Shown here piece after piece: positions 32,970 to 59,761 of a DNA stretch of 64,000 bases (its first letter is position 1; each line of letters starts with the position of its first letter). The position numbers and the translations under genes were made by a program. The notes under the pieces are model-generated. The model saw only the letters and a program-made list of their open reading frames with translations. It had not been told where the DNA came from and did not search any database. The DNA comes from Desulfomonilia bacterium. GTDB taxonomy: Bacteria; Desulfobacterota; Desulfomonilia; UBA1062. The stretch is from NCBI GenBank assembly GCA_050014195.1, contig JBEKDT010000002.1:358174-422173 (forward strand). Reading direction: 5' to 3'.

Positions 32970-34097
32970 ATGGTTGAGGTGAGACGTGTTGATACTAAGG
33001 GCATGATGAAAGACTTCATGATGTTCCCATGGACATCCAGGATCTATGAGAATGATCCTGCATGGATTCCCCCTCTCATCAGTGACCAGAAAAATCTTTT
33101 TGACAGAAGAAAAGGATACTTTTTCGAGATAGGCGAAGCAGAGTTTTTTCTGGCATATAAAAACAGCAGTCTTGTCGGCCGTATCACAGCCCACGTGAAC
33201 CATCTTTATGAAAGTAAATATGACAACGACACGGGGTTCTTCGGGTTCTTCGAGGCCGTCAATGACCCGGAGGTTGCCCGTGCCCTTTTCGATACCGCAT
33301 CTTCCTGGCTTAAGCACAAGGGCAAAAAGATCATGAACGGCCCCCAGAGCTTCTCCATCTATGACTCGGTGGGGTTCGAGGTGGAAGGTGCTGAGAACAT
33401 CCCCTCAGTGGGTAATTTCCACTTTGCCCCTTATTATAAGGATTTTGCCGAGGCATGCGGGTTTGTTAAATGCATCGACTGGCATTGTTTCCTGGTGAAA
33501 CGTGTCAATTATGAACAACATATACCCTATCTGGATGAAGTAAGAAAGGGCCTTCTCTCCACTACGGACGCGGTATTTAAAAATCTTGACAAGCGGGATT
33601 TGGCAAAAAGGGTGAAAGATGTGCATGATATCTTCAATGCCGCATGGGAGGGAAACTGGGGCCATCTTCCGCTGACAGACAAACAGACCGAGATGATCTT
33701 TTCCGAAATAAAGATGTTCCTCACCCCTGAATTTACCGTATTTGCGGAGAAGGATGGAAAGACCATAGGCTTCATTCTCACCCTACCAGACATCAATCCG
33801 GCATTAAGGGTTTTAAACGGAAGGCTCTACCCGTGGCGGCTCTTAAGGTTCATGAGAGAGGCAAAAAAAACCAAGAGGATGAGAACCTTCATCATGGGGG
33901 TGCTCCCGGAATATCACGGGCAGCACATCGATGAGATTTTTTACCTGAAGGCCATTGAACAGGGTCTTCTCGCAGATATCTGGGAGTCTGATTGCTCGCT
34001 GATCGTTGAGACCAATACAAATATGATCCATGCACTGAAACCGTTCACCCCTGAGCTCTACAAAACCTATCGAATCTATGAAAGACCTATTCCCTGA
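32970..34097 (+). CDS. YghO-like double-GNAT protein; candidate bacterial ceramide synthase (bCerS-like)
   Basis: IYENDPAWIPPL, VGRITA, GFFGFFEAVND, FNAAWEGNWG, TLPDIN, MGVLPEY, E(T)N, KTYRIY. Confidence 0.75.
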   Translation: MVEVRRVDTKGMMKDFMMFPWTSRIYENDPAWIPPLISDQKNLFDRRKGYFFEIGEAEFFLAYKNSSLVGRITAHVNHLYESKYDNDTGFFGFFEAVNDPEVARALFDTASSWLKHKGKKIMNGPQSFSIYDSVGFEVEGAENIPSVGNFHFAPYYKDFAEACGFVKCIDWHCFLVKRVNYEQHIPYLDEVRKGLLSTTDAVFKNLDKRDLAKRVKDVHDIFNAAWEGNWGHLPLTDKQTEMIFSEIKMFLTPEFTVFAEKDGKTIGFILTLPDINPALRVLNGRLYPWRLLRFMREAKKTKRMRTFIMGVLPEYHGQHIDEIFYLKAIEQGLLADIWESDCSLIVETNTNMIHALKPFTPELYKTYRIYERPIP

Positions 34098-34134
34098 CTT
34101 CAGGGTTATTCGTCCGTAGCCAGGGTTATGTCCG

Positions 34135-35016
34135 CTAGTTGCGGGTGATGATCGATCGGGCCATGGGCTCGCCCCAGCGGTACACTGCAAAACCAAGGCT
34201 TATCCCGACAACGAGGTCCGTCACATAGTGGTAGCGCAGGTAAACCGTCGAGAAGAGGAGGAGAACTGTCCAGACAAGGGCAACGGGAAAATATCTCTTC
34301 GCGTATCGCCAGGACAGAAGCACGGTGAGCAGGGAGACAAGGGCGTGTCCGCTCGGCATGCAGTCGTACATCCTGCCTTCAGCCTGTGCCAGCAGGTTTC
34401 TGAGGAAATCAAAGGTCCACAATCCGGTCAGGGGAACGCTTTGCAGGTGTTCCATGGTGAATCGCGGCCCGAGGACCGGGGTGAAATAATACCCGATGTA
34501 GGAGAGATAAAAGCCCATGAATATGGTCGATGCAGCGACATGAAAGTCATCCCTGGTCTCCCTGAGAAAATAGAGGATCACACACAGTGTGAGGGGAAGA
34601 AAATAGAAGCTCGCATAGGATATCTGCAGTATTTCCGAAAGTGCAGGGTACATGATTCTTTCCATGAGGATAGTGGGGTCGTGCCCAAGAAAAAAAAACC
34701 GGTCGGCGGCCATGACGAGGCTGTCAAATTCTCGGGGGTTGATGATCGGGATGAGTGTGCGATTCTCCAGATAGATGACTATCAGGAACGGGAGAACATA
34801 CCAGTCCCGGAAAAACCGCACCCATGCGTGGGGAAAACGCCTGTGGACATAAGCCGCCAGGAGGATGGCTGCAGTGATGAGCATGTTCAGCACAAAGATG
34901 TCATGGGCCTGCCTGATGTGCATGAAAAGGAGGATGAGGAGATTGGACAGCACTGCCATGCCGATGGTAAGGCCTTCTTCAAGGCTCAGAAACTTTTCAG
35001 GATTACATGCCTTCAT
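34135..35016 (-). CDS. PAP2-superfamily membrane protein, Aur1/IPC-synthase-like
   Basis: YYFTPVLGPRF, DCMPSGH, STVYLRYHYVTD. Confidence 0.8.
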   Translation of the reverse strand: MKACNPEKFLSLEEGLTIGMAVLSNLLILLFMHIRQAHDIFVLNMLITAAILLAAYVHRRFPHAWVRFFRDWYVLPFLIVIYLENRTLIPIINPREFDSLVMAADRFFFLGHDPTILMERIMYPALSEILQISYASFYFLPLTLCVILYFLRETRDDFHVAASTIFMGFYLSYIGYYFTPVLGPRFTMEHLQSVPLTGLWTFDFLRNLLAQAEGRMYDCMPSGHALVSLLTVLLSWRYAKRYFPVALVWTVLLLFSTVYLRYHYVTDLVVGISLGFAVYRWGEPMARSIITRN

Positions 35017-35054
35017 CGGTGCACTCCATTTGCCGGTTTTTTCATAGGCGATCT

Positions 35055-36410
35055 CTAAGGCTTTCCTATTGAGTTGGAGGCCCCTGCAAATGGTTGTGGA
35101 TTCCTCAGACCTTTGAAATAACGTTTACGGGTAGAAAGATTGACGCCGGTGTACAGCTGGCAACCGAGCAGAGTTCGTTTCCATGGGCTCATGCCAAAGA
35201 AGCGTTTTGTCATTGCGCCGAAAGAATAGGCTTGTCTGTTCAAGCGGTCGAAACCGTTAGTGAGCTCATCAGCAGTCATGCCCTTGGGTTGAAAAAGGAG
35301 TGTATCCGGAGGATATCCACAAAGCCACCAGTCACGCACGAACAACCTGCCTTCGTTTAAGAGGCGCTCATATAAGCGTGTTCCCGGATAAGGAGTGAGA
35401 ATCCTTAGCTGGACAACATCCAGACGACCTCTCATTATAAATTCAAGGGTCTGATCGAACACATCCTTGTTTTCGTAATCAAAGCCAAAAACAAAGGAGC
35501 CCAGTATACCGAAACCTTCACCATGGAATCGATGCATGGCCTCATAAAAATCGATCCTCAGATTCTTTATTTTTTTTACCTCATTCTGTGTGCCTTTCTG
35601 TACCGATTCGAATCCGATTAAAAGCCCCAGGCACCCCGCACGTTTCATCAATCCCAGCAGCTCCAAATCCTCAGCTAATGAAACCGTGCCTTGCGCCAGC
35701 CATCGCCGCCGAAGAGGTATCATTTCAGTAAAAAGCTTTTTGGCTGCATTCCGGTTCAGTCCAAGGGCATCATCGACGAAGAAGATGTAAGGGGAATCAA
35801 TAGCCTCTATCTCGGCAATCACCTCCTGAACCGGCCTCACTCGATATTGCTGCCCCAATGTCCGGCCAATGCAACAGAATTCGCAGTCGTACGGACACCC
35901 TCGGGATGTCTCGACGCCGATCGGGATCGGAATATAACCTTTACCTTTGGTTCCGGGAAAGAGATCTCGCCGTGGTTTCGGAAGACCTTGGAGATCGGTC
36001 AGTTTACCGGCCCGATATAGCCTTTGCATCTGCCCTGAGGCGGCATCCGATACAAGTCGCGACCAGATATTCTCAGCTTCTCCCACGACCACCGCGTCTG
36101 CATGCTCCAAAGCTTCGTCAGGCAATACCGTGGGGTGTATTCCTCCCATCACCACCAACACCTTCTTCCGGCGATAGGTGTCAGCAATATCATAGGCTCT
36201 TAGCACAAGGTCAGTCATGACGGTGATACCCACCAAATCCACATCTTGATTCGTGTCATCGGGAGCAAAGGCTTCATCGACAATCGTAACCGTGTGGCCA
36301 GGCGGGGTAAGAGCTGCCAGAAGAGGAAGATTTACCCTCTGGAGCTTGAAAGGGCTGGATAACGTGTCTTCACGTTGCTCGCGCGGTGCGATAAGTTTTA
36401 TTTTCATCAT
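35055..36410 (-). CDS. B12-binding radical SAM protein (class B methyltransferase-like)
   Basis: LAALTP, MGGIHPT, SRGCPYDCEFC, IGFES, TPYPGT. Confidence 0.92.
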   Translation of the reverse strand: MMKIKLIAPREQREDTLSSPFKLQRVNLPLLAALTPPGHTVTIVDEAFAPDDTNQDVDLVGITVMTDLVLRAYDIADTYRRKKVLVVMGGIHPTVLPDEALEHADAVVVGEAENIWSRLVSDAASGQMQRLYRAGKLTDLQGLPKPRRDLFPGTKGKGYIPIPIGVETSRGCPYDCEFCCIGRTLGQQYRVRPVQEVIAEIEAIDSPYIFFVDDALGLNRNAAKKLFTEMIPLRRRWLAQGTVSLAEDLELLGLMKRAGCLGLLIGFESVQKGTQNEVKKIKNLRIDFYEAMHRFHGEGFGILGSFVFGFDYENKDVFDQTLEFIMRGRLDVVQLRILTPYPGTRLYERLLNEGRLFVRDWWLCGYPPDTLLFQPKGMTADELTNGFDRLNRQAYSFGAMTKRFFGMSPWKRTLLGCQLYTGVNLSTRKRYFKGLRNPQPFAGASNSIGKP

Positions 36411-38170
36411 TGCGCCTTGGTACCATTGCCGACAGGTCTCGAAACGCCCCAGCCGGCATCCGGCGGTGTAGGTATCATCTTCACCACGTAATCGCCTAAT
36501 CCATGAAGAGAGCCGCTCATATAGGAACGCACTTTGTTGTCCTGGTCTGTCAAAGAGAAAATCGATTTGTCGTAAGGACGGACCCGCAAAGACATCGGTA
36601 CGCCCATCAGGTCGAGAAGGGTCGCAAAATTGTTGAGATGGGAAACCCTGATGCCGGGGGGAATGCCGGCTAAGAGCCCTTTCTTGCTATACTGCTTGCC
36701 TGACACGAGAAAATCGGGCACATCGACGATCACCTTGTCAGGCTTCATATGGGTATACACTTTCCCATGCTCCGCCAAAGTCTGGCCATGGTCCGATGTG
36801 TACAGTATGACATAGTTCTGATTCGTCGTTCCGGAAACAAACACCCGGAAGAATTCATCCACTTGAAAGCGGATCCCGTTGTCATAGGTATTGACGAGCT
36901 TCTCACGTCCCGCCATGCTTGGGTCAATGGATTCCGATGCCCCCATAACCGGCTTCCAAATCGCAGAGACCATATCGTCCGGATATCTATTGCGATAGCG
37001 GAAATGAAGACCCTTCTTGTTGATGAGAATGAAATAGCCGCCTCTTTCATTCAGAAGACCACTGAGAAAGCCGGCTACGCCCAAATCCTTCGTGGTTTCA
37101 AGATCGACGTGGCACTCCTCGAACGACTGAGAGTCCATCCACCTGTCCAGGGATCTCACGGGACCATCCCCGGCTGCTTTCAAGAGCTGAGAAAGATAGC
37201 CTCCATCAATGTCAATATAGACCGTCTCATAGCCCATTTTCTTTGCGTAATCAAAGATTGAAGGGTTCCTGTCGGTTCGAAAGTCGACATCGGGAAATGC
37301 GTTGTGACCGGTAATGAGATAGGCATTGCTGATATGGGAAGCGGTACCGGCCGCGACACAAATGCCGAGATTCTTGAGGCGCCCCTGGGTTTGAAGGTAT
37401 TGAAGGAACGGTGTGGTGGCACGAGGGTAGCCGTTCAGGCTGAGAGTGCTGCCGCGAACCGACTCATCGATGACATAGATGATGCTGTCGGAAGGCCGCT
37501 GGGAGATGTGAAACACAGGCAGGTCGTCTCGCGGTCCATGGTATTGGCTTAAGGTTTCAAACTCGTAATGAAGTGTTGAACGGAGGAAGGAGGTCAGGGG
37601 ATTCAGATTGAAGCTGTGTTCCGGCACGTGGAGGAAGAGGGCGTAATTGGAAGCCAGGAGGTAGAGCGCCGGCAGGAGGCTCAGCGCCAGGGTCTTTCGG
37701 GATGCGGATACAGGCGGGACGAGGATCAGTGCGGACAGAACGAGTACGTAGGGGAGAGAATACAAAAAGACGAGCGGTTTGAAGAAGCTTGAGATGGCTT
37801 CTCGGATAGTATCCCCTCCGACGGTCAAGACGAGAAACAGGTCGGTGGCGGTCATGAACTGGGATAGAGTCTGCCAATAGGAAACTTGGACGACTACAAC
37901 GAAAACAGAAAGAAGGATGGCCACCGTGCGGAGAATTCTGGGGAGGAGAAGAATGAGATAGAAGAGGGCGACCACCTGCAGGAAGACCAGCGTGAAGGCG
38001 GCCAGGGACTTCATGGTGCCGGCGACCGGGAGCAAATGCAGCATATCTCGGTAATCACTGAACCTCAAAATGGGATCGATGAGCACCGCGAGTGTTGCTG
38101 CCGACAATGCGGTAATGGCGCGGGGGTAAGGTGCCTGAGTAATGGCGCGAAGCGAGTACTTTGCTATCAT
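36407..38170 (-). CDS. EptA-like phosphoethanolamine transferase / sulfatase-fold membrane protein
   Basis: N-terminal TM helices; VIDESVR, GYPRATTP, GLHFRY, NTYDN, YTSDHG. Confidence 0.8.
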   Translation of the reverse strand: MIAKYSLRAITQAPYPRAITALSAATLAVLIDPILRFSDYRDMLHLLPVAGTMKSLAAFTLVFLQVVALFYLILLLPRILRTVAILLSVFVVVVQVSYWQTLSQFMTATDLFLVLTVGGDTIREAISSFFKPLVFLYSLPYVLVLSALILVPPVSASRKTLALSLLPALYLLASNYALFLHVPEHSFNLNPLTSFLRSTLHYEFETLSQYHGPRDDLPVFHISQRPSDSIIYVIDESVRGSTLSLNGYPRATTPFLQYLQTQGRLKNLGICVAAGTASHISNAYLITGHNAFPDVDFRTDRNPSIFDYAKKMGYETVYIDIDGGYLSQLLKAAGDGPVRSLDRWMDSQSFEECHVDLETTKDLGVAGFLSGLLNERGGYFILINKKGLHFRYRNRYPDDMVSAIWKPVMGASESIDPSMAGREKLVNTYDNGIRFQVDEFFRVFVSGTTNQNYVILYTSDHGQTLAEHGKVYTHMKPDKVIVDVPDFLVSGKQYSKKGLLAGIPPGIRVSHLNNFATLLDLMGVPMSLRVRPYDKSIFSLTDQDNKVRSYMSGSLHGLGDYVVKMIPTPPDAGWGVSRPVGNGTKAQ

Positions 38171-39282
38171 CAGCCCTCTTCCCATTTAGTGGCTATTATG
38201 CCCAGGATGAAGACCACGGCTGCAAAAACCCCTATGACCGCTGAGTATCTCAGCGCGGCCATGTTGTCTTCAAATACCATGGATGCCCGGAGCCCCTCGT
38301 TCACGTAATACAGCGGCAGTGTCTTGGCGAACTTCTGCAGGAACCCCGGCATCAGCTCGATGGGGAAGAAGCTCCCCGAGAGGAACATAATCGGGAAACT
38401 GATGGCGTTTGCCGCAGATGCGGCGCTCTGAGCCTCCTTGACGAAGCGGGTGAGTATCATCCCGATTCCCACGAACGCGAAGACGTCAAGTAAAATGAAC
38501 GCAGGGAGCCATGCATCTAAATGCAACTTGACATGAAACACGGCGTAGCTCACCAGCAGCATCGCCATTGTGGATATGACCGCGAGTATGAACTGGTATA
38601 GGATGTCGGAGAGTATCCATTCGGTACGGGTTATGGGCGTCGTGGACAGTTTCCTGATGATGCCCTTCTGTCGCAGCTCCGTGTTCAAGTTCACCGTGCC
38701 GAACAGGCTCAGAGTCATCACCGCCATCGCGATGATGCCGGGAATGAAGAACTCTATGAACCGGTATTTCTTGGTGAGTATCGATTTCTGGGCCGATCTG
38801 ATGACCGGGGGCTTCCCGGACATCTGCTGGTTTATCCCGGCGAACACTGCGTTCAGGATATCCATCTTCGTGGACACCGAAGAAGAACTGGGGTCGTATA
38901 TATAGGTGATGGTGACGGATGCGTCTGCGTCGCTGAGCATCATGCTGCGCATGAGGGACCGTTCAAAGCCTTTGGGAATGACGAGGACAAGGTTCACCCC
39001 GTTGTCCCTGACGTACCGGGCGGCGTTGACGGCCGGGTCGACCTTGGTTATCTTAAACTTCCCGGAGCTTTTGAGGGTCTTGATGGACCGTGCGGACGAA
39101 TCCGTCTGGTCGAGGTCCTGCACGCAAAGGTGGAAGGCCACGTTGTCCTGGCTCATGAAGATCGTGCCGAACACGAGTATCAGGATTATGGGGAACGCAA
39201 GCGTGAAGAACATGGCGGTTTTCTCGCGGTAGACGCTCATGAGTTTCACAATGAGATTTGCGCCGATGACGCGTGGTTTCAT
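38170..39282 (-). CDS. ABC-2 type exporter permease
   Basis: FFTLAFP, FFIPG, FLSGSFFP, LPLYY. Confidence 0.92.
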   Translation of the reverse strand: MKPRVIGANLIVKLMSVYREKTAMFFTLAFPIILILVFGTIFMSQDNVAFHLCVQDLDQTDSSARSIKTLKSSGKFKITKVDPAVNAARYVRDNGVNLVLVIPKGFERSLMRSMMLSDADASVTITYIYDPSSSSVSTKMDILNAVFAGINQQMSGKPPVIRSAQKSILTKKYRFIEFFIPGIIAMAVMTLSLFGTVNLNTELRQKGIIRKLSTTPITRTEWILSDILYQFILAVISTMAMLLVSYAVFHVKLHLDAWLPAFILLDVFAFVGIGMILTRFVKEAQSAASAANAISFPIMFLSGSFFPIELMPGFLQKFAKTLPLYYVNEGLRASMVFEDNMAALRYSAVIGVFAAVVFILGIIATKWEEG

Positions 39283-40232
39283 TCCGCCCCCTCTTCTCCG
39301 ACGGGACCGTCGCGGAGCGCCTCGCCGGTGAGCTTCAGGAAGACCTCTTCAAGGTTGGGTTTCCGAACGTCCAAGCCAAGGTACAACGCCCCGGCTTCCT
39401 TGATGGCGCTCAGTATCTTCTGTACATCGTCCGTGTGCTCCACCCTGGTCTTGATGTCTTTGTGATTGTCGAGAACCGGGTCGAAGCCCATCTTCCGGAC
39501 GATTTCAAAGGTCTTTTCATCCACGGACTGTAATGTGAGGACCAGGTAATTTGTATTGTTTTCGATCAGTTCCTCGGGAGAGCCCATGGCGATGATCTTC
39601 CCCTTCGAAATGATTGCGACCGTGTCTGCAAGAAGCTCAGCCTCCTCCATGTAGTGCGTGGTCAGAAACACCGTCTTCCCCTTCTTCTTCAGGCCCAGCA
39701 GGACTTCCCACACCTCGCGCCTTGCCCGGGGGTCGAGCCCTGTCGTAGGCTCGTCCAGGAACACGACCTCGGGGTCGTTCACGAGCGCAATCGCGATTCC
39801 AAGGCGCTGCTTCAAGCCCCCGGAGAGGTTCTTGTACTGCTCTTTGGTCTTGTCCTTGAGGTTCACGAGCTCTATCAGAGCGTCGATATCGATGTTCACG
39901 CAGCAGAAAAGCCGCGAGTAGTACTGCAGGGTCTCTCTGACCGTTATCCTGTCGAATGAACTGAACCCCTGCGGAAGGACGCCGATGCGGCGGACGATGT
40001 CGTGCTTTTTCTTCGTGACATCCATTCCAAGAAGGGTCACCTTTCCAGACGTGGGCGTGCGGATTGTATCGATGATCTCGACGGTAGTGGTCTTGCCGGC
40101 GCCGTTCGGGCCCAGCAAGGCGAACACCTCTCCTTTCCTGACGGTGAACGATATTTCATTGACCGCCAGTAAATCTCCATAGCGCTTCGTCAGTTTCTCC
40201 ACTTGGATTGCATATTCAGTTTCTTTGGTCAT
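39279..40232 (-). CDS. ABC exporter ATP-binding subunit
   Basis: GPNGAGKTT, LSGG, FLDEPTTGLD, TTH. Confidence 0.95.
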   Translation of the reverse strand: MTKETEYAIQVEKLTKRYGDLLAVNEISFTVRKGEVFALLGPNGAGKTTTVEIIDTIRTPTSGKVTLLGMDVTKKKHDIVRRIGVLPQGFSSFDRITVRETLQYYSRLFCCVNIDIDALIELVNLKDKTKEQYKNLSGGLKQRLGIAIALVNDPEVVFLDEPTTGLDPRARREVWEVLLGLKKKGKTVFLTTHYMEEAELLADTVAIISKGKIIAMGSPEELIENNTNYLVLTLQSVDEKTFEIVRKMGFDPVLDNHKDIKTRVEHTDDVQKILSAIKEAGALYLGLDVRKPNLEEVFLKLTGEALRDGPVGEEGAE

Positions 40233-42663: not shown

Positions 42664-42672
42664 AAATTATCG

Positions 42673-51311: not shown

Positions 51312-51413
51312 CATAGCGATTGTTAAAATTATGTTAATAATTACAGCAAGTAAATGATGCACAAAGGGCCGCTTCCTGCTGGATCTTTAGCAAAAGGAAA
51401 AGGGTTTTATGCT

Positions 51414-54400
51414 ATGAAGGGAAACACACTTGGAATAGATGTCGGGTCAGTTGCAATCAGTATTGTAGAGATCACACCTGAGTATACTATCGTTAAAAGT
51501 GCATACCGTCTTCATCGGGGCAAGATTGCAGAAACCCTATGTGAAGCTCTTGATGGTTTGCCCTTATCACGTATCTCGCAAGTCAGCGCCACTTCTTCGA
51601 CACCTTATTTCGTGAAGGCAGGAAAGAGGTACGATAACCAGGTGTGCCTCATTGCCGCACTCCGCCATGTTCGGGGTAATGCAGGCGCCCTCTTGAATAT
51701 CGGCGCAGAACGATTCTCCCTGCTTTTATTCGATGAGAACGGCATGTACAGGAAATGCAAGACCAATTCCTCGTGCGCAGCCGGAACCGGGAGTTTTCTC
51801 GATCAACAGTCCTCCCGGCTCAATCTCGCAGGGATCGAGGAACTGGGAGTTATAGCCTCTACCAATACGGGTGTAATCCCCAAGATCGCCTCGCGCTGTG
51901 CGGTCTTTGCCAAGACAGACCTTATCCATGCACAGCAGGAAGGGTACAGCCTTACTGAGATCTGCGACGCCCTGTGCTACGGGCTGGCAAAAAATATTGT
52001 GGATACCCTTTTCACCGGTGAAGAGGTGAATGAACCCATTGTTGTATGCGGCGGCGTGTCGAAGAACCCTGCTGTGCTCCGGCATATACAAAAACTCATC
52101 GGGAAGGATCTCCTTGTGGATGAGATGTCTCATCTCTATGGGGCATTCGGTGCAGCTGTCCTGCTTACCCCTGAGGCAGCAGGAGAAGTGACGGATATCA
52201 AGTCGCCCAAGGACCTGATCCAGGACATAAAGCCACAGAGAAAATATGCCTGCGCCCCCCTGGAACTGAAGCTGTCCGATTACCCGGATTTTGAGGGTAT
52301 CAGACATTATCCATACGCGGTCAGGACGAGAAAGACCCCTGAGAAGGTCGAGGTGGATGTATATCAGGAGCTGCCAAGAGGCGGGATTGAGAGGGTTTAT
52401 CTCGGCATAGACATCGGCTCCACAAGCACCAAGGCCGTGATGGTCGATGAGCAAAAGAATGTCCTGGCCGGGTTTTACACCTGGACCGCCGGCAGGCCGG
52501 TCGATTCCCTCTGCGCGATTTTTGAGGCAATCGATGATTATATTACCCATGAGGGGATTGCAATCGAGGTGATTGGTGCAGGGACTACAGGCTCGGGCAG
52601 AAAGCTTATCGGCAAGATCATCAATGCGGATATGGTCATTGACGAGATAACGGCTCATGCACGTTCCGCCTGTGAGCTGATGCCCGATGTAGACACTATT
52701 ATCGAGATCGGCGGGCAGGATTCCAAGTTCACTACATTAAGGAACAAGGCAGTCACTTTCTGCGCCATGAACACCATCTGCGCCGCCGGCACAGGTAGCT
52801 TCATCGAAGAGCAGGGCAAAAAAATGGGCTGCCCGCTTGATGAGTATCAGGGAAGGGCAGAGGGCAGAGGAGCCCCCATGGCATCGGACAGATGCACGGT
52901 CTTCATGGAGCGGGACATAAATTATTACTTGAGCGAGGGATACAGCCCCGATGAAGTGCTGGCAACCGCCCTCCACTCCGTGAGGGAAAATTACCTCACA
53001 AAGGTGGCTATTGAGGCAAGCATTGGTGAGACCATATGCTTCCAAGGTGCTACGGCAAAGAACAGGGCCCTTGTGGCGGCCTTTGAGCAGAGGCTCGGCA
53101 AGCCTATCCATGTGTCTCGATACTGCCATCTCACGGGCGCCTTGGGTGTGGCGCTCCTGCTCTTGGATGAAGGTGTAACCTCAGAGCAATTTCGAGGGGT
53201 TAACCTCTATATGAAAGAGATCCCGGTGCATTCCGAGGTCTGTTCGCTGTGCACCAACCACTGCAAGCTGACGGTTGCCGAGCTTGATGGTGAGGAACTG
53301 GCCTACGGGTTCCTCTGCGGGAGGGACTATCATGTCAAAGCGCATATTGATAACAATACCTCCGGATTCGATCTCTTAAAGGCACGGGCAAAGGCGTTTT
53401 CATTCCCGAAGAGAAGTATCCAAGAAGAACGTCTCACCATCGGGATACCCGATGCCCTCCACCTCAGTGAAGACCTGGAGTTCTGGAGGTATTTCTTTGA
53501 TGCACTCTCGATAAAGACCGTAACGAGCAAGGGGTATGTGGATGCCGTCAAAGAGGGGAAGAAGATTTCCGGAGCGGAGTTCTGTGCACCGCTCACGGCA
53601 CTGCACGGCCATGTGGGTTACCTCCTCGGCAAGGCCGATTATGTTTTCCTGCCGTTCTACCTGGAGGACAAGCAGAAGACAAAGGACATAAGGAGGCAGT
53701 ACTGCTACTACACCCAGTATGCACCCTCACTGGCGGCCTCGGCTTTTCCAGGAGAAGAGGGAAGGATTTTAAGGCCTCTCATCAAGTACCTTTACAATGC
53801 ATTCCATGCAAAGGTGCAGCTCTATCGCATGATAAAAACCATCATCGGCAGAAGGGTCGGCTTCTTAGATGTTTCAACGGCCTATGAAAAGGCCCTCGAA
53901 TTCAAGGAGCACTCGCTTGAAGACCTATCCCAACAATTCCAGAGAGAAATTTCAGGTACCGACGGGGTATCGGTCGTACTCCTTGGGAGGCCGTATACCG
54001 TGCTGTCCCCTGTCATGAACAAAGGGATCATCGATCTTTTTGCATCAAAGGGGATCAAGGTCTTTTCTCATGACATGCTCCCGGTGAATGGTCACAAATC
54101 CGATAAGAATCTTATGGAGCTCCTCGATGAGCTTCCCTGGAAGCATGCTGCAAACATCTTGCATGCAGCAGATCTTTCAGCCAAGACCGATGGGCTCTAT
54201 CCTGTCCTGGTGACCTCCTTTCGATGCTCGCCGGATTCCTTTGTGGCAGAGTATTTCAAGAAACTCCTCGATTCATATGCGAAGCCGTATCTCATCCTGC
54301 AGCTCGATGAGCATGATTCGAATGTGGGGTACGAAACCAGGATCGAGGCTGCCATCAGGGCATTCAGGAACCACTTCGTGAGGGTTAGAACACATAAACC

Positions 54401-55652
54401 TCAGGCACCACAAAAGAGTATAATTCCGGTGAAGTCATTTGCAGACAGGACCCTGTATTTCCCGAACTGGGACCATTTGAGCTGCAGGCTTATCGTTGCA
54501 TCACTCAAGCGGGAAGGTATCGATGCGCGGCTTACCGAGGGGAGCGAGTCGAGTCTTCTGACAGGCCTTAAATATAACACCGGCCAGTGCATCCCCATAA
54601 ATATCATGGCCCAGGAATTCATCGATTCCATGCTGAAGCACGATATGGACCCCTCACGGTGCGTGCTGTGGATGTGCAGTGGTACAATCGCATGCAATCT
54701 GAAGATGATCCCGCACCATATCAAAAACATCCTCAACACCCATGGCAAGGGTATGGAACGTGCGGATGTGTACCTTGGAGAGATCTCCATGATGGATATA
54801 TCTTTGCGCGCCACCGTGAACGCATACCTTGCCTTCATGTTCGGGGGCCTGCTCAGAAGGGTCGGGTGCAAGATACGGCCTTATGAAACCGTGAAAGGGA
54901 TGACCGAGAAGGTCATGGAAGATGGTTTACATATCCTCGATGAGGCATTCCAGGGATTACAGTCCAAGGAGGATGCCCTCAAGGAGGTAGTATCTCTCTT
55001 TGAGAAGATTCCTAAGAGGGTAGAGAAAAGGCCCCAGGTGGCGATCTTCGGTGATGCCTATGTCAGGGACAATGATTTTGCCAACCAGGGTCTCATCCGT
55101 TTCATCGAGGAACAGGGCGGGGAGGTCATTACCACCCCGGACATTTCTTTCTTAAAGATGATCGCAAGCCCGTATTTTAAGAAGTGGATTATTGAAGGCG
55201 AGTATCTCTTTGCCATCTTATCGAAGGCATATTGGACCGCCTTAGAGCTCATCGAAAGAAAATACTACCGGTACTTCGAGACAATCCTGAACGAGCCCGT
55301 CCATGAGTATAGAGACTCTACGCAGAAGATCCTTGCAGGATACAACCTCCTGCCGGAACATACCGGAGAATCGATGGAAAACATTATAAAAAGCCACTAT
55401 ATCAAGAAGTATCACCCCGATGTCTCCCTTTTCGTCCATACAAGCCCGGCATTCTGCTGTCCGGCCTTGGTTACCGATGCCCTGGCAAAGAAGATCGAGG
55501 AGACGACCGGGGTCCCTATGGTGAATATCACCTATGACGGTACGTGCAGTGCAAAAAACAGCGCAGTGATCCCTTATCTCGCATTTTCAGACAAAGAGGC
55601 GAAGCGGCATGTACATGACATGGGCCGGATTGAACGATTTTTAGGAAAATAA
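51414..55652 (+). CDS. Fused CoA-activase x2 + DUF2229 + dehydratase-like protein (PlsA/Ger plasmalogen/ether-lipid synthase architecture)
   Basis: Two ASKHA domains (GIDVGS/GIDIGSTSTK, each with CAAGTG and RC[AT]VF), EFCAP, FRCSPDS, DEH...ETRIEA, QCIP, PAFCCP; about 1410 aa. Confidence 0.8.
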   Translation: MKGNTLGIDVGSVAISIVEITPEYTIVKSAYRLHRGKIAETLCEALDGLPLSRISQVSATSSTPYFVKAGKRYDNQVCLIAALRHVRGNAGALLNIGAERFSLLLFDENGMYRKCKTNSSCAAGTGSFLDQQSSRLNLAGIEELGVIASTNTGVIPKIASRCAVFAKTDLIHAQQEGYSLTEICDALCYGLAKNIVDTLFTGEEVNEPIVVCGGVSKNPAVLRHIQKLIGKDLLVDEMSHLYGAFGAAVLLTPEAAGEVTDIKSPKDLIQDIKPQRKYACAPLELKLSDYPDFEGIRHYPYAVRTRKTPEKVEVDVYQELPRGGIERVYLGIDIGSTSTKAVMVDEQKNVLAGFYTWTAGRPVDSLCAIFEAIDDYITHEGIAIEVIGAGTTGSGRKLIGKIINADMVIDEITAHARSACELMPDVDTIIEIGGQDSKFTTLRNKAVTFCAMNTICAAGTGSFIEEQGKKMGCPLDEYQGRAEGRGAPMASDRCTVFMERDINYYLSEGYSPDEVLATALHSVRENYLTKVAIEASIGETICFQGATAKNRALVAAFEQRLGKPIHVSRYCHLTGALGVALLLLDEGVTSEQFRGVNLYMKEIPVHSEVCSLCTNHCKLTVAELDGEELAYGFLCGRDYHVKAHIDNNTSGFDLLKARAKAFSFPKRSIQEERLTIGIPDALHLSEDLEFWRYFFDALSIKTVTSKGYVDAVKEGKKISGAEFCAPLTALHGHVGYLLGKADYVFLPFYLEDKQKTKDIRRQYCYYTQYAPSLAASAFPGEEGRILRPLIKYLYNAFHAKVQLYRMIKTIIGRRVGFLDVSTAYEKALEFKEHSLEDLSQQFQREISGTDGVSVVLLGRPYTVLSPVMNKGIIDLFASKGIKVFSHDMLPVNGHKSDKNLMELLDELPWKHAANILHAADLSAKTDGLYPVLVTSFRCSPDSFVAEYFKKLLDSYAKPYLILQLDEHDSNVGYETRIEAAIRAFRNHFVRVRTHKPQAPQKSIIPVKSFADRTLYFPNWDHLSCRLIVASLKREGIDARLTEGSESSLLTGLKYNTGQCIPINIMAQEFIDSMLKHDMDPSRCVLWMCSGTIACNLKMIPHHIKNILNTHGKGMERADVYLGEISMMDISLRATVNAYLAFMFGGLLRRVGCKIRPYETVKGMTEKVMEDGLHILDEAFQGLQSKEDALKEVVSLFEKIPKRVEKRPQVAIFGDAYVRDNDFANQGLIRFIEEQGGEVITTPDISFLKMIASPYFKKWIIEGEYLFAILSKAYWTALELIERKYYRYFETILNEPVHEYRDSTQKILAGYNLLPEHTGESMENIIKSHYIKKYHPDVSLFVHTSPAFCCPALVTDALAKKIEETTGVPMVNITYDGTCSAKNSAVIPYLAFSDKEAKRHVHDMGRIERFLGK

Positions 55653-55659
55653 TAAATGG

Positions 55660-55917
55660 TTATACTCTCCCCTTCTGTGCCTTGCAGATACCCCATCGCA
55701 TAATCAGCTCGACGATGAAAGGGAAGTGCCGCTTCATGAAATAGATGAATTTTCCATCTGCACCGGGGATAATGATGAAGGTACCGCGTTTGATGCCCTC
55801 GATAAGCGCCCTGGCGACTTCATCCGGGTGCAGGATCAACTTTTTCCTGATCAATTTTTAAACCGGCTGCGGCAGGACCCCGGCTTTCTCCGCCACGGGT
55901 TTTATCATGAGGCTCAT
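55660..55917 (-). pseudogene. Deletion remnant: N-terminal stub, in-frame TAA, then SDR C-terminus (3-ketodihydrosphingosine-reductase-like)
   Basis: RBS AGGAG-ATG MSLMIKPVAEK...PV* then LHPDEVARALIEGIKRGTFIIIPGADGKFIYFMKRHFP, an SDR-type tail. Confidence 0.55.
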
Positions 55918-57166
55918 CCTGCCTTCTCCTGAACGATGCAAGCGGACTGAGGGGAGGATTCATCGTGATCAGGTTCATTTTATTTCCTAAAGACCTGCAG
56001 CAATCCAGAAGGTAATCGATCTGCTCCCTGGTATGGGAGGCCATTACGGTGAATCTAATCCTGGACTGGTTTCTCCTTACAGCAGGCCATCTGACGCATG
56101 GCCCGTATATCCCGTAGTCAACCAGACGCCGGGAGAATTCCACCCCTTTATCGTCTTTGCCGATCAATATGGGGATGATCTGGGTCTCGCTGGAAAAGGT
56201 ATTGAACCCCAGATTCTTAAAGCCTTCCTTCAAATGGTTGGTATTCTCCCATAACTTCGTTCTTAAAGTCGGGTCGTTTTCCATGAGATCGATTGCGGCA
56301 ATAATGGTTGCAGCCGTGACCGGGGGCATGGCTGCCGAGAACATATACGACCGGGAAGCTACCCGGAGATAACGTATCAGATCCTCCGATCCTACTACAT
56401 ACCCACCCACAGCTCCAACGGATTTGCTGAAAGTTCCCATTATGATGTCAATGTCCTCCATGGGTTTCAGGTGAAAATGTTCAATAGTCCCGTGTCCATG
56501 GGCTCCGAGAACGCCTGTGGCATGGGCTTCATCCACCATGGTGACCGCATCATATTTCTTCGCCAGGTATGCTATCTGATCGAGAGGGGCGATATCACCA
56601 TCCATGCTGAAGACACCGTCGGTTATTATAAGCTTGCGCCTGCGGCGATGGCGTTTCAGCTTTGCTTCCAGAACATTCATATCCTTGTGAGGATACACCA
56701 CGGTCCTTGCCCCGCTCAATCTACACCCGTCAATAATGCTTGCATGATTCAAGTCGTCGGAAAAAACCATGCCTCTTCTCATGAAGAAATAACGGGGAGA
56801 AATCTTCAGCAGGTCGAGGAACCCTGATATGGCACCGATATTCGCTGAATAACCGGTGGGAAATATAATGGCTGCCTCTCCGCCCTTAAAAGCGGCTATT
56901 TTCCGTTCTGCCTCCTCATGGATCTTGAGGTTTCCGGATAAGAGGCGGGAACCTCCCGAACCTGTCCCGTATTTTTCAATAGCCTCATGGGCTGCTTCCT
57001 TGATTTCGGGATGGGATGTAAGCCCCAGGTAATTATTGGAAGAGAACATCAATAACTTTTTTCCATTCACAAAAACTTCAGGGTTTGCTCCGCCGTCAAT
57101 AACGGGGATATCCGGATAGATCTGTTTCTTCTCTGCCAATTTATTAAAAGCGCGGATATACTTCAT
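55820..57166 (-). CDS. PLP-dependent alpha-oxoamine synthase, serine palmitoyltransferase-like
   Basis: SNNYLGL, GSGGSRLLSG, NHASIIDG, DGVFSMDGD, DEAH, GTFSKSVG (PLP Lys), SRSYMFSA. Confidence 0.85.
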   Translation of the reverse strand: MKYIRAFNKLAEKKQIYPDIPVIDGGANPEVFVNGKKLLMFSSNNYLGLTSHPEIKEAAHEAIEKYGTGSGGSRLLSGNLKIHEEAERKIAAFKGGEAAIIFPTGYSANIGAISGFLDLLKISPRYFFMRRGMVFSDDLNHASIIDGCRLSGARTVVYPHKDMNVLEAKLKRHRRRRKLIITDGVFSMDGDIAPLDQIAYLAKKYDAVTMVDEAHATGVLGAHGHGTIEHFHLKPMEDIDIIMGTFSKSVGAVGGYVVGSEDLIRYLRVASRSYMFSAAMPPVTAATIIAAIDLMENDPTLRTKLWENTNHLKEGFKNLGFNTFSSETQIIPILIGKDDKGVEFSRRLVDYGIYGPCVRWPAVRRNQSRIRFTVMASHTREQIDYLLDCCRSLGNKMNLITMNPPLSPLASFRRRQDEPHDKTRGGESRGPAAAGLKIDQEKVDPAPG

Positions 57167-57329
57167 CTGATAAGACCTCCCATTTTTAGGGGTAACCGCA
57201 ACATTCGCTCTACCAGGTGCCTGAGATCTCGTCCAAGCCTATCCATCTTCAAGACAAACAGTGGGTCACCTTCTCGTAAAGACTTCAGATCAGCATCCAA
57301 GCCATAGACACCGATTCTCCGGGAAAACA

Positions 57330-57400
57330 GCGTGCAATGCAGGTGGGACGGCAGAATATGCCCGTGGTCTTCACCCCTACAATGAAGATACCTTTCAAAG
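57330..57400 (-). pseudogene. 70-bp relic of an ada N-terminal Zn-binding segment
   Basis: Matches 27563-27632 with 4 substitutions and a 1-nt indel; encodes GIFIVGVKTTGIFCRPTCIAR. Confidence 0.8.
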
Positions 57401-57431
57401 AAGAAACGCTATTGTTATTTTCATACCTCGC

Positions 57432-58358
57432 TCACTTCAAAGATCCACCCACGTTTGCTTTCTTCTCTGCCGGGATCACCGGATTATCCCTGAGAATACG
57501 GATATTGCCTTTCTCTTCGATAGATCCACTGTATCCCCTCATAAGGGCTTCAGGATTCTCCAGCAAATCTTTGACCTCTTTCTGCAGCAATGAAACGTAA
57601 TATCCATGAAAAATGCGGTGGTCCATAGTCATGCATAGCTTCAAAACCGGCCTGACTACAAGTTTACCATTTTGCACCCAGGGCTTTTCTTTTATCTGGG
57701 TAATAACCATCAGAAGACCACTCCTTGCAACAGGGACAAGTGGGCCATATGCTGATTCAATACCTTGCATGCCCACTGATGAGATGATAGCCGACCCGAA
57801 AGGGTCATCCGGAAAGCCAAAGCGGGAGAGATCCAAATCGAATCTGTTGACAAGTACGCTTGCAATTTTCAAGATCCACCGGGTTAAAGAGATTGAAAAA
57901 TGCCCGAGGAGATCTTCGGCAGCCTGATATGTCGGTCCATGGTTGTTTCTCACCGCCATGGCTCCCTCCCGGATCTCACGAGCAATCTCGGATACACTCT
58001 TTTGATCAACATCCTTCAATTTTATTCCTGAAATATCATCACCGAATTTCGTTGAAATGAGGAGTTGAAAATCGACTGTTTTACGCCTGTAGATCCTGTT
58101 TGATTCTATCTTTGCATTTATCTGAGGATATTTTCGATAGGCCATAGCAAGAGCCTTGGTGCAAAGATGGGTGATAGTTATTTTTTCTCCTGTCAGCTTC
58201 CGCTGAGACTTAATCCAGGCAAGAGCATTGCTCATATCAATGCTGAGACTGCTGAATATAAACGGCTCTTCAGGGGTTTTCCACATGGCATTGGCCATCT
58301 TGAAAAAAGTTGGGACCTTTTTTACTTTGCTAAATCTGGCTTTTCTCATTCTCAACAT
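57432..58358 (-). CDS. Stand-alone 2-oxoacid-dehydrogenase E2-type acyltransferase catalytic domain
   Basis: KITITH, FGSAIISSVG, TMDHRIFHG; no lipoyl or E3-binding domain. Confidence 0.8.
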   Translation of the reverse strand: MLRMRKARFSKVKKVPTFFKMANAMWKTPEEPFIFSSLSIDMSNALAWIKSQRKLTGEKITITHLCTKALAMAYRKYPQINAKIESNRIYRRKTVDFQLLISTKFGDDISGIKLKDVDQKSVSEIAREIREGAMAVRNNHGPTYQAAEDLLGHFSISLTRWILKIASVLVNRFDLDLSRFGFPDDPFGSAIISSVGMQGIESAYGPLVPVARSGLLMVITQIKEKPWVQNGKLVVRPVLKLCMTMDHRIFHGYYVSLLQKEVKDLLENPEALMRGYSGSIEEKGNIRILRDNPVIPAEKKANVGGSLK

Positions 58359-58525
58359 GATTCCAACCCTCCTCTCAAGGTGAAGTCGGATATTCTCTTG
58401 ATTAGGGTCCTTGCTGTTGAAAAGGAAGAAGCTGGTCTACTAAATTAATTCAAGCGTTTTACCAGGAACAATCTAGTACTCAGATAACATTTATTCTTGA
58501 TTGTCTATAATTATGAGAGGTAACC

Positions 58526-59761
58526 TCATGCCTCGAGAGATCTGATAATTGCCATGCAATCCTCTTTGCCCATGATCTTGGGAACGGGATAGGTGGGGTT
58601 GCATTCATACAATGCACGTTCCGCGATGGTCGGGATGTCTTCATCTTTAATGCAGTCAAACTTGTTCGGAATGTTCATTCTGCTGTTCAGCGCTTTAACG
58701 GCTTCGATAAAAGCCCTGGCCTTTTGAGACCGGCTCATGCCGAACTTGGAAACACCGGCAACCTCCGCAAGCTCAGCCAGAGGTTTGTGCACTGCTTCGC
58801 CGAACCATTCAAGGATATAAGGCATGATAACAGACATGGCGAGACCGTGAGGAACACCGTACATGCCGCCGAGGTTATGACCGATCCCGTGGACATAACC
58901 GACGCCGCCGCGTGTGAATGAATATCCTGCATAATAGGAAGCAAGCAGCATCTGCCCGCGTGCCTCGAGGTCTTTACCGTTCTTATAAGCCTTTTCAACA
59001 TTGTTGAAGATCATCTCTACTGCCAGAACAGCCTTTATACGGGTTTCTGCATTGTTATAGAATTTTCCGATGTAGGACTCAACCGCATGGGTCAGGGCAT
59101 CCATACCTGTCGTTGCGGTAATGTGAGGCGGAAGACCAACAGTAAGTACCGGGTCAAGAACCGCGTATCTCGGACGGATAACAGGGTCGTTGATCGGATA
59201 TTTTTCATGCGTTTGCGTGTTCGATACCACGGCTGCTATGGTGGTTTCGGAACCTGTACCTGCTGTTGTCGGAACTGCGAAAAGGACCGGGGGGAAAAGA
59301 GATCCCATTTTAACCGCGGGCATTATTACCTTGAACAAACCTCTCATCTTTGTAACCGGACGGTTCGGCCGGGCAACCCGTGCGCCGGTAACCTTTGCGC
59401 AATCCATGGGTGAACCGCCGCCGAAAGCTATGATGGCCTGACAGTTGTTTGCCTTGTAGATCTTAAATGCAGCTTCGATGTTGTCGATGGTAGGGTTGGG
59501 TTGTACCTGGTCATAGAGTGAATACTTGATGCCTGCGTGACCGAGGGCCTCAAAGAGAGAATCGAGCAGGCGAAGACCCATAAGGCCGGGGTCGGTAACC
59601 ACAAGAACGCTGGTGATCTCTTTGTTTCTGATGACCAGAGGAAGTTTTATTATGCTGTCCGTGCCTTCGATGATCTCGGGTTCAATCCAGGGGATAAAAT
59701 TCATTCCAAAACCCATGATGAACTGATACGTACGATAATACGCCTTCTTTAATGCCCACAC
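58526..59761 (-). CDS. Iron-containing alcohol dehydrogenase
   Basis: GGGSPMDCAK, PTTAGTGSETT, GMDALTHAVE, HGIGH, PHG; RBS GGAGG before GTG 59761. Confidence 0.93.
   Translation of the reverse strand: MWALKKAYYRTYQFIMGFGMNFIPWIEPEIIEGTDSIIKLPLVIRNKEITSVLVVTDPGLMGLRLLDSLFEALGHAGIKYSLYDQVQPNPTIDNIEAAFKIYKANNCQAIIAFGGGSPMDCAKVTGARVARPNRPVTKMRGLFKVIMPAVKMGSLFPPVLFAVPTTAGTGSETTIAAVVSNTQTHEKYPINDPVIRPRYAVLDPVLTVGLPPHITATTGMDALTHAVESYIGKFYNNAETRIKAVLAVEMIFNNVEKAYKNGKDLEARGQMLLASYYAGYSFTRGGVGYVHGIGHNLGGMYGVPHGLAMSVIMPYILEWFGEAVHKPLAELAEVAGVSKFGMSRSQKARAFIEAVKALNSRMNIPNKFDCIKDEDIPTIAERALYECNPTYPVPKIMGKEDCMAIIRSLEA

Follow-up and report, generated by a model that had tools for sequence, protein, structure and literature searches.

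The present analysis concerned a lipid-type locus in the genome of a Desulfomonilia bacterium (GenBank assembly GCA_050014195.1, contig JBEKDT010000002.1). The window is the whole stretch of DNA that was analysed, 64,000 nucleotides long (positions 358,174 to 422,173 of the contig), and the locus occupies about 27 kb of it. An initial annotation, made from the letters alone, had described a single membrane-lipid island in which an iterative polyketide synthase (PKS), sphingolipid-type enzymes and anaerobic ether-lipid synthesis belong together. All the genes it had named were found in place, using the open reading frame (ORF) list and Pfam and NCBIfam scans of the window. However, judged by comparison with relatives, the 27-kb stretch is a mosaic of four parts and not one pathway. 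The features were as follows.

32970-34097, + strand: GCN5-related N-acetyltransferase-type (GNAT) protein, 375 aa, bCerS-like family, PAP2_3-paired clade (Acetyltransf_1 weak, 21.3 bits)
34135-35016, - strand: PAP2_3/PAP2_C membrane enzyme of the Aur1/SMS-like head-group transferase type, final gene of the operon (Pfam)
35055-36410, - strand: B12-binding and Radical_SAM enzyme (B12-rSAM), probable C-methylase, conserved gene of the PKS core (Pfam)
36407-38185, - strand: EptA-like sulfatase-fold transferase, accessory gene of this lineage only (Sulfatase, 63.6 bits)
38170-39282, - strand: ABC-2 permease (ABC2_membrane_3, 125 bits)
39279-40232, - strand: ABC ATPase (ABC_tran, 112 bits; drrA, 273 bits, cut-off 312)
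40216-41352, - strand: FemAB_like (PF04339) GNAT-fold transferase (27.9 bits, cut-off 27)
41432-42277, - strand: lipoprotein, 281 aa, unnamed family (lipobox; invariant His and Cys)
42458-42664, no strand given: copy of a multi-copy repeat of ~190 bp between the lipoprotein and PPTase genes (DNA matches)
42673-43458, - strand: Sfp-type 4'-phosphopantetheinyl transferase (PPTase), start overlapping the PKS stop (ACPS, 37.4 bits)
43455-51131, - strand: iterative type I PKS/fatty acid synthase, 2558 aa (Pfam and NCBIfam)
51354-55652, + strand: PlsA/Ger-architecture reductase, anaerobic ether-lipid type (BcrAD_BadFG, PF01869, twice, and DUF2229, PF09989)
55655-55857, - strand: short-chain dehydrogenase/reductase (SDR) remnant, last ~66 codons, probably of a 3-keto reductase (translation, alignment to genome G007)
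55820-57166, - strand: oxoamine synthase (AOS) resembling serine palmitoyltransferase (SPT), with a non-homologous tail of 48 aa (Aminotran_1_2, 214.6 bits)
57330-57400, no strand given: direct repeat (71 bp) of a segment within ada, at the right end of the insertion (93% identity to 27563-27632)
57432-58358, - strand: stand-alone E2 catalytic-domain acyltransferase (2-oxoacid_dh, PF00198, 99.4 bits)
58526-59833, - strand: Fe-dependent alcohol dehydrogenase (Fe-ADH and ADH_Fe_C)

The minus-strand operon ran in the order PKS, PPTase, lipoprotein, FemAB_like, ABC ATPase, ABC-2 permease, EptA-like, B12-rSAM and PAP2_3, and from the PKS to the rSAM gene the start and stop codons mostly overlapped. 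The GNAT gene was convergent with PAP2, and the PlsA/Ger gene was divergent from the PKS. On the far side of PlsA lay the AOS, E2 and Fe-ADH genes, followed by an EruA-like NACHT gene. The first part of the mosaic was assigned as a laterally spread cassette with the release-less PKS, PPTase, Cys/His lipoprotein, FemAB-like protein, ABC-2 exporter, EptA-like protein and B12-rSAM. The second was a small sphingolipid-type set of SPT-like AOS, SDR, PAP2_3 and bCerS-like GNAT, split here by the cassette. The PlsA/Ger-type gene, which relatives without the PKS keep, made up the third, and the E2-like and Fe-ADH genes, which adjoin ada in relatives, were the backbone genes of the fourth.

Near-identical DNA was present in 24 peat and wetland metagenome runs (23 study codes), in every case as DNA contigs, with no RNA run among those listed. 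There were no tRNA genes in the window, no integrase was found, and Rfam gave no match at gathering thresholds; therefore neither a tRNA-type integration site nor a riboswitch was indicated. A promoter and terminator scan of 41300-59900 gave counts close to those of shuffled sequences (19 against 18.1 and 23 against 17.8).

The oxoamine synthase and its sphingolipid-type neighbours

The class of the window genome (G000) was represented by 122 genomes, among them 51 of its own family and 70 of a sister family. The AOS was compared with its homologues by scores and by trees. The NCBIfam scores were 448.6 for the BioF/Kbl family TIGR01825, which was the best match, 410 for SPT-CFB (cut-off 640) and 401.7 for Kbl. 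The best PDB matches were nearly tied, with 312 bits for the SPT 3a2b and 308 bits for the Thermus BioF/Kbl 7poa. Trees were built with FastTree from 141 rows and with IQ-TREE (LG+G4, quick) from 63 picked rows, and a third tree added the AOS of G470, a genome from another family. The window AOS fell in a small clade of its own (96, 83 and 74% identity) with support of 100. This clade was sister to the SPT clade with support of 96 in FastTree and 97 in IQ-TREE, outside the clade holding the NCBIfam-validated SPT. That sister clade contained Bacteroidota AOS followed by GNAT homologues, the best AOS of the sister family and, in the third tree, the G470 AOS. The validated SPT was from Niastella, where the AOS passed the NCBIfam SPT cut-off (691.7, cut-off 640) and the gene order was SPT, GNAT homologue, epimerase-type reductase and inositol-1-phosphate synthase. 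E. coli Kbl lay in a separate clade with 70 metagenome sequences (71 rows, support 97). E. coli BioF grouped with the second AOS of the window genome, which sits in a complete bioB-bioF-bioD-bioA operon on another contig. The initial annotation had tied its reading to an SPT-like protein that does not group with BioF/Kbl, and the tree position agreed with it. As placed by these trees, the AOS is SPT-like and belongs to a sister clade of SPTs whose members are uncharacterised, and not with E. coli Kbl or BioF.

The scores also allowed a different explanation. The AOS could be a conventional BioF or Kbl acting in biotin or threonine-glycine metabolism, with the SDR remnant a dead threonine dehydrogenase and no sphingoid chemistry. 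Its TIGR01825 score and the near-equal PDB scores fit this explanation. In addition, the AOS narrowly passed the TIGR00858 bioF cut-off (428.9, cut-off 426.45), and its nearest relatives outside its own clade (57-62% identical) were annotated as BioF, in metagenome-assembled genomes (MAGs) of Patescibacteria, Omnitrophota and similar groups. However, the genome already holds the complete bio operon, and the trees put the AOS with the SPT clade. In the relative G007, moreover, the AOS was translationally coupled to an SDR and PAP2_3 beside a GNAT of the bCerS family, and the longest alignment of that SDR was with the 3-ketodihydrosphingosine reductase TSC10 (8jat, residues 7-239), though generic SDRs scored higher. 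We considered the explanation very improbable, and assignment of the window AOS as BioF was rejected on its tree placement away from E. coli BioF and on the bioBFDA operon elsewhere, despite the narrow score pass.

Close relatives of the AOS were few. A scan of the genome contigs with the AOS returned only G007 and 12 distant relatives (39-46%). Among 80 loci kept from a metagenome scan, two belonged to the close AOS clade (56-60%); their neighbours were 7TM histidine kinases and an F420 ligase, which were uninformative on function.

The initial annotation had also proposed a decayed SDR beside the AOS, and this was borne out. In G007, the stop codon of the AOS overlapped the start codon of an intact SDR of 275 aa (adh_short, 173 bits), and PAP2_3 began 11 bp further on. 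DNA alignment with G007 showed that the window SDR lacks ~530 bp, and the 48-residue tail of the window AOS was unrelated to its relatives of 400 aa. On G007 contig C13, the AOS, SDR and PAP2 genes (overlapping and 11-bp junctions) formed a compact set with a convergent GNAT and nothing between, free of the 20.6-kb PKS/PlsA block. Contig C8 carried the 20.6 kb from rSAM to PlsA, an intact SDR and a further AOS that is truncated at its N-terminus. These arrangements could be two loci or two strains of a MAG. The AOS-SDR segment was present in two copies (loci L053 and L054). The C13 AOS had two frame changes, which may be assembly errors. The C8 copy lacked residues 1-132 and adjoined PAS-domain regulator genes, with its SDR intact. 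The two copies could be the result of duplication, strain mixture or assembly error.

The GNAT showed full-length homology to SPT-adjacent GNATs of Niastella and Cyclobacteriaceae. Its homologue directly after the validated Niastella SPT was 31% identical (E 1.7e-58). A PDB search with the GNAT gave chance matches only (E >= 0.5). Of the 122 genomes of the class, 86 carried the family, with 22 of 51 among own-family and 63 of 70 among sister-family genomes. In a tree built from 30 rows, three groups were seen. The first held the Cyclobacteriaceae SPT-adjacent GNATs. The second was an own-family clade including the window GNAT, in which the gene was convergent with PAP2_3 in eight of the nine own-family loci fetched. 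The third combined the Niastella SPT-adjacent GNAT with Desulfobacterota GNATs, and all PKS-adjacent GNATs formed one subgroup of it (support 92). No second GNAT copy was found in the window genome. In the case of PAP2, the scores were 79.3 bits for PAP2_3 and 32.5 bits for PAP2_C, both against a cut-off of 27. The sequence contained PSGH and HYVTD motifs, which we take to be the SGH and HYxxD motifs of the Aur1/SMS type. The compact G007 set and the GNAT homologue beside the validated SPT were consistent with the sphingolipid-type reading that the initial annotation had given to the AOS, SDR, PAP2 and GNAT.

One further locus was observed in the sister family. In G030 (contig C36, positions 7809-12251 of locus L161), a GNAT had B12-rSAM genes on either side (25-29% identity to the B12-rSAM of the window), and an SPT-like AOS lay 30 kb away on the same contig.

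Composition and spread of the PKS cassette

The PKS carried one set of domains in one protein, in the order enoylreductase (ER, NMO type), ketosynthase (KS), acyltransferase (AT), acyl carrier protein (ACP), ketoreductase (KR) and dehydratase (DH, PS-DH), as assigned with Pfam and NCBIfam. The same scans gave no thioesterase or reductase release domain in the PKS, and its first ~340 aa had no Pfam match. The AT motif was of the malonyl type as judged by eye. The PKS had one PP-binding domain, and no second KS protein was present in the operon. The PfaA model TIGR02813 scored 427.9 against a cut-off of 1010.

Full-length orthologues of the PKS, 52-61% identical, were present in all 70 sister-family genomes and in 75 of the 122 genomes overall. 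Within the own family, only 4 of 51 genomes had the PKS, all from the own genus. In a sample of the phylum, it was found in 18 of 401 genomes. Ten of these were outside the class, and five of the ten were closer (69-76%) than the sister family, which fits horizontal spread. Cassette homologues also occurred among sequences named from Nitrospirota.

Seven main-copy loci of the sister family were compared. The PPTase followed the PKS in all seven, and the B12-rSAM came next in at least four (three by tblastn and G078 by Pfam, with G080 by both). No GNAT, AOS, PAP2, FemAB, PlsA, EptA or exporter orthologue was adjacent in any of the seven. Beside the G078 locus (contig C1), a 'male sterility' NAD_binding_4 fatty-acyl-reductase-like gene lay ~1.1 kb away from the PKS and on the other strand (positions 14470-15561 of locus L035), and MatE and SAM synthetase genes came after the PKS, PPTase and B12-rSAM. 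Four sister-family genomes (G033, G087, G046 and G047) had a second PKS copy, and a GNAT was divergently adjacent to this copy. The second copies formed one clade, distinct from that of the window PKS. Their PKS-GNAT-AOS arrangement was considered as a case of PKS-to-AOS coupling and was rejected, as the AOS passes the bioF cut-off (444.9, cut-off 426.45). It fell outside the SPT clade in all three trees and with BioF-like rows in two (support below 90). These loci were therefore counted for the PKS-GNAT link only.

The cassette itself recurred in other families. Its orthologues in G489, G482 and G470 were 58-84% identical and in the same order. In G489, the order was GNAT, lipoprotein, PKS, PPTase, FemAB, two ABC genes and rSAM. 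On the same strand as this cassette (contig C6, positions 5175-8552 of locus L180) was a fusion protein of 1125 aa with a fatty acyl-AMP ligase-like (FAAL-like) AMP-binding domain, an ACP and an AOS, which was the only AOS homologue found in that genome. G482 had an epimerase, rSAM, GNAT, PKS, PPTase, one further gene, two ABC genes and rSAM, with PAP2_3 convergent. In G470, GNAT, PKS, PPTase, two ABC genes and rSAM were convergent with an AOS-PAP2_3 pair. This AOS was in the SPT clade, 58% identical to the Niastella SPT and 3 kb from the cassette. Shorter loci showed GNAT-lipoprotein-PKS (G360), rSAM-GNAT-PKS (G505) and PKS-GNAT (G464), and no GNAT was present within 12.5 kb of locus sequence in G358. 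A GNAT of the same family thus adjoined the PKS in six of seven other-family loci. The PPTase, exporter and rSAM followed the PKS in three of the four loci that had downstream sequence; in the same four, the AOS was found in two and PAP2_3 in two. The linkage of PKS, PPTase, exporter, rSAM and GNAT was conserved, and the proximity of an SPT-type AOS and PAP2_3 was recurrent and independently assembled. The initial annotation had called for conserved linkage in relatives, and it was obtained for these genes, with nothing comparable for PlsA, EptA-like, E2 and Fe-ADH. Clustering beyond chance thus appeared for a subset (PKS, PPTase, ABC-2, rSAM, lipoprotein, FemAB-like, GNAT family, AOS and PAP2_3) that recurs in other families, and it did not hold for PlsA, EptA-like, E2 and Fe-ADH. 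On this gene-order evidence, the proposed link of the PKS to sphingolipid-type genes looks real.

The partner genes followed the same distribution to different degrees. The B12-rSAM orthologues were 76-83% identical and stood at the cassette end in G489, G482 and G470, where the ABC-2 exporter orthologues were 71-83% identical. For the FemAB-like protein, the nearest Atlas clusters were 94-98% PF04339, and the G489 cassette contained an orthologue of 63% identity. The EptA-like protein scored 82.6 against a cut-off of 500 with NF028537, and only the sulfatase fold and overall length agreed with EptA/MCR. Its gene was absent from all seven PKS loci of other families, missing in G007 and reduced to a 71-aa remnant in G001, which argued against the part in the pathway that had been given to it.

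The lipoprotein stood between the GNAT and the PKS in G489 and G360. Its invariant residues in a 13-row alignment were His104, His120, His132, His220 and Cys203. The family had 595 homologues; among the 120 listed, identity was 74-100% and none had a Pfam family. The sources of the homologues included Thermodesulfovibrionales and Dissulfurispiraceae. The structure predicted from the 13-row alignment (mean pLDDT 53, pTM 0.50) was too poor for a fold search. A weak Atlas match to the papain-like TseH (0.89) was obtained. The papain-like assignment was rejected, as it rests only on this match and the invariant Cys and His, with no confident fold.

The ~190-bp repeat at 42458-42664 had matches in G003, G002, G007 and G008 and on contigs C16 and C11 of the window genome. 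Its position inside the operon was seen in the window only, and it was absent from the same spot in G007. Short multi-copy repeats of 150-230 bp were observed at ~31980-32210, 30412-31093 and 42458-42664, with copies of 75-93% identity on other contigs of the window genome. Many copies were present in same-genus genomes, for example at least nine on G007 contig C1, and they matched no Rfam family.

The sister-family loci raised another explanation, in which the cassette makes a non-sphingoid envelope lipid. This would be branched long-chain (hydroxy) fatty acids for lipopolysaccharide (LPS) or lipid A, or an N-acyl amino-acid lipid, and its position in the AOS-SDR-PAP2/GNAT set would be an insertion accident in a variable region. 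Branched long-chain hydroxy fatty acids have been reported as LPS signatures of Desulfomonile tiedjei. Literature searches on Desulfomonile hydroxy fatty acids and on Desulfomonilia lipids gave nothing relevant. The explanation accounts for a PKS-PPTase-B12-rSAM core that is kept in the sister family (PKS in 70 of 70) with no adjacent AOS or GNAT at the main copies, for the EptA-like lipid A-type transferase in the operon, and for a block lying in a variable region with repeats and a defence gene alongside. It also accommodates the decay of sphingolipid-type genes, namely the SDR in G000 and, in G001, the loss of PAP2 and the EptA-like gene with no AOS found. However, two AOS lineages that are not related to each other, the window clade and that of G470, came into this association, which must therefore have formed at least twice, the bCerS-family GNAT is the usual PKS neighbour in other families, and PAP2_3 stands at the cassette in G482 and G470. 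We regard a non-sphingoid product as a minority possibility, to be kept in view but rather doubtful.

Resident genes and the inserted block

The flanking genes were followed in relatives. The ada gene lies at 26639-27748 of the window. In G003, the Fe-ADH gene came directly after ada, and in G004, the E2-like gene did. Therefore the E2 and Fe-ADH genes belong to the backbone, and ~29.6 kb (~27.8-57.4 kb) have been inserted here. A direct repeat of 71 bp was present at 27563-27632, inside the 5' part of ada, and at 57330-57400, between the AOS and E2 genes, with 93% identity; the same ada segment was single copy in G003. This suggests that the ~29.6-kb block arrived or was rearranged via recombination at ada. 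The E2-like protein had PF00198 only, with no lipoyl or subunit-binding domain. Its orthologues (60-75%) in five other own-family genomes were unlinked to PKS or AOS. The Fe-ADH gene had 86-91% DNA identity in G003, G002 and G007, where neither a PKS nor an AOS lay near it. It is difficult to reconcile these positions with the pathway roles that had been assigned to the two genes.

The PlsA/Ger gene behaved similarly. Its DNA identity was 92% in G003 and 74% in G002, both of which are without the PKS. PlsA, EptA-like, E2 and Fe-ADH were found in none of the seven other-family PKS loci. These results suggested that PlsA/Ger is a resident gene, so that the apparent link of ether lipids to the PKS cassette, which the initial annotation had drawn, is not supported and appears to be one of neighbourhood only. 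In G001, the order was GNAT, rSAM, further genes, PKS and PlsA, without PAP2.

Beyond the Fe-ADH gene, a protein of 1274 aa with a NACHT domain was encoded at 60063-63887 on the minus strand. It was a near-full-length match to the antiphage EruA model (833.7 bits, E 3.9e-250, cut-off 1000). Therefore the variable block borders a defence gene. On the other side, the conserved upstream backbone contained a second B12-binding radical SAM gene (21600-22874, minus strand) and a PMT_2 (ArnT-like) glycosyltransferase gene (23087-24658, plus strand), both syntenic in G003.

Taken together, the results are best summed up as the insertion of a PKS lipid cassette into a sphingolipid-type set that is partly eroded here, with PlsA/Ger, E2 and Fe-ADH as bystanders. 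The reading that we favour, with moderate confidence, is that a horizontally spreading lipid cassette landed in a sphingolipid-type set, and the ceramide-like product is proposed from the genes alone. Several results weigh against this reading, in addition to the narrow bioF score, the BioF-annotated relatives and the bare main-copy loci of the sister family. No AOS was found anywhere in G001, although its assembly is 98% complete and the cassette is present, and none was found in G004 and G011, both of which are incomplete. The truncated SDR was the only form in the contigs of all four runs compared. The window GNAT belonged to the PAP2-paired clade and not to the PKS-adjacent clade. Moreover, the GNAT-PAP2 pair occurred amid unrelated housekeeping genes in many own-family genomes where no AOS was found; therefore the substrate of the pair in those genomes cannot be a sphingoid base of their own making.

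Proposed working and comparison with known systems

Under the favoured reading of a cassette landed in a sphingolipid-type set, the PPTase-primed PKS would build a long saturated chain on its own ACP, for which all three reducing domains are present. The B12-rSAM probably methylates this chain. Since the PKS has no thioesterase or release domain, the chain would leave via a partner enzyme that forms an amide or a C-C bond. A GNAT-family N-acyltransferase is favoured as this partner because it was the most constant PKS neighbour and because in G489 the AOS comes with a FAAL-ACP loader of its own; the alternative partner is the AOS. The AOS, GNAT and reductase would give a ceramide-like N-acyl amino lipid, which PAP2_3 would furnish with a phospho head group. 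Export would be by the ABC-2 pump, which together with the lipoprotein would handle the lipid in the envelope. The window genome has lost the SDR, has no GNAT of the type that usually partners the PKS and carries a repeat within the operon; therefore a 3-keto product or a smaller range of lipids may be made here. A more specific version, which we put forward only tentatively, is that the PKS supplies the N-acyl chain and not the sphingoid base. Very long, rSAM-modified chains would be handed directly to the bCerS-family GNAT to give ceramide-like lipids in strict anaerobes, and the lipoprotein and FemAB-like protein would be new tailoring steps. If so, this hand-over cassette would be a candidate source of the C32-C34 N-acyl (1-deoxy)ceramides described from euxinic water (PMC11334938).

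The original proposal of one co-evolved island was weighed on the same evidence. In this proposal, the AOS releases the PKS chain, as in the case of Fum8 and SgaB, to give a sphingoid base that is reduced, N-acylated, methylated, decorated and exported, with ether-lipid synthesis, E2 and Fe-ADH attached. The lack of a release domain in the PKS is in line with it. A PKS-to-SPT hand-over has been described in bacteria for SgaAB (PMC12134224), and the AOS is SPT-like in the trees. The AOS and PKS are less than 5 kb apart here and in G007, and in G470 an SPT-clade AOS lies 3 kb from the cassette. However, release of the chain by the AOS is not supported. Here the AOS and PKS are in separate transcription units with PlsA between them, and the constant neighbour of the PKS is the GNAT and not the AOS. 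The G489 AOS has a FAAL and an ACP as fusion partners, so that supply from the PKS is not required, and G001 has the cassette with no AOS found. E2 and Fe-ADH belong to the backbone, and PlsA is independent of the PKS. We consider the single island unlikely, and prefer the inserted cassette.

The pairing of a PKS with sphingolipid-type genes recurs in related bacteria and probably yields ceramide-like membrane lipids. Bacterial sphingolipids were long thought to be rare, and Spt-like genes have now been described in ~40 phyla (PMC11334938), with one PKS-fed route in Pseudomonas (PMC12134224). Together with its relatives, the locus suggests a second PKS-linked route, of different construction, in anaerobic Desulfobacterota. 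It would combine a GNAT as constant PKS partner with a cobalamin radical-SAM enzyme, an exporter and a highly conserved unnamed lipoprotein. This provides genes with which two questions can be tested: where the very-long-chain or branched amide lipids of anoxic peat and sediments come from, and by what means a synthase that has no thioesterase releases its product.

Several related systems are known. In the Spt-bCerS-CerR pathway of Caulobacter, as outlined in PMC11087976 and PMC11334938, the likeness is an SPT-like AOS with a GNAT-type N-acyltransferase of the SPT-adjacent family. However, the window reductase is a classical SDR and dead, the AOS is in a sister clade of known SPTs, and the GNAT clade also occurs in genomes where no AOS was found. 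In a search confined to the island, no ORF gave an Epimerase-family match that would indicate a CerR of the epimerase type. Ding et al. (2024) report that the ~40 phyla include Desulfobacterota MAGs. Their account of 1-deoxyceramides with C32-C34 N-acyl chains in euxinic water leaves the origin unexplained and ties them tentatively to Desulfobacterota (PMC11334938).

The PlsA/Ger protein of the window matched the published 'Ger architecture 2' of the PlsA/PlsR and Ger proteins, with two PF01869 and one PF09989 domains (as given in bioRxiv 10.64898/2026.06.23.733905). Its membership is by architecture only, and alkenyl or alkyl ether formation is at most predicted.

The pfa-like 'secondary lipid' synthases, which in the account of Shulse and Allen (2011) include a single-ACP ars type I fatty acid synthase, offered another comparison (PMC3098273). 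The window PKS shares with them the KS-AT-ACP-KR-DH order of PfaA, a PfaD-like NMO-type ER, a dedicated Sfp-type PPTase and a patchy spread driven by horizontal gene transfer. In contrast, it is all in one protein with a single ACP and has no PfaB or PfaC (KS-CLF-DH). It is accompanied by a GNAT, a B12-rSAM and an ABC-2 exporter. In the ars system, ArsA passes the chain straight on to a partner enzyme.

Among the closest systems is SgaABC of Pseudomonas fluorescens MYb115. As described by Peters et al. (Nat Commun 2025), SgaA (iterative PKS), SgaB (SPT) and SgaC (KDSR-like SDR) give C24-C28 sphinganines, and the products are very-long-chain sphinganines and phosphoglycerol sphingolipids; the authors list 6101 homologous clusters (PMC12134224). 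Both loci hold an iterative monomodular type I PKS, an SPT-type AOS and a classical SDR, of which only a remnant is left here. The window PKS, with its PfaA-like order and NMO-type ER, is likened to SgaA by description and not by sequence. The arrangement differs. The sgaAB genes form a two-gene unit, whereas in the window 4.7 kb, including PlsA, separate the PKS from the AOS, which belongs to another transcription unit. The KDSR-like SDR is reduced to ~66 codons in the window and is intact in G007. In addition, the window has the bCerS-family GNAT, PAP2_3, B12-rSAM, ABC-2 exporter, lipoprotein and FemAB-like genes. A literature search on PKS, radical SAM and Desulfobacterota lipids, made on titles and abstracts, returned no description of this cassette, which is weak evidence of absence. 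The initial annotation had known of no description of such a combination, and this has been overtaken by SgaABC. Since that system is already published, the general idea of PKS-derived bacterial sphingolipids is not new. What differs here is the make-up of the cassette, the GNAT as constant PKS partner, the B12-rSAM and the unnamed lipoprotein.

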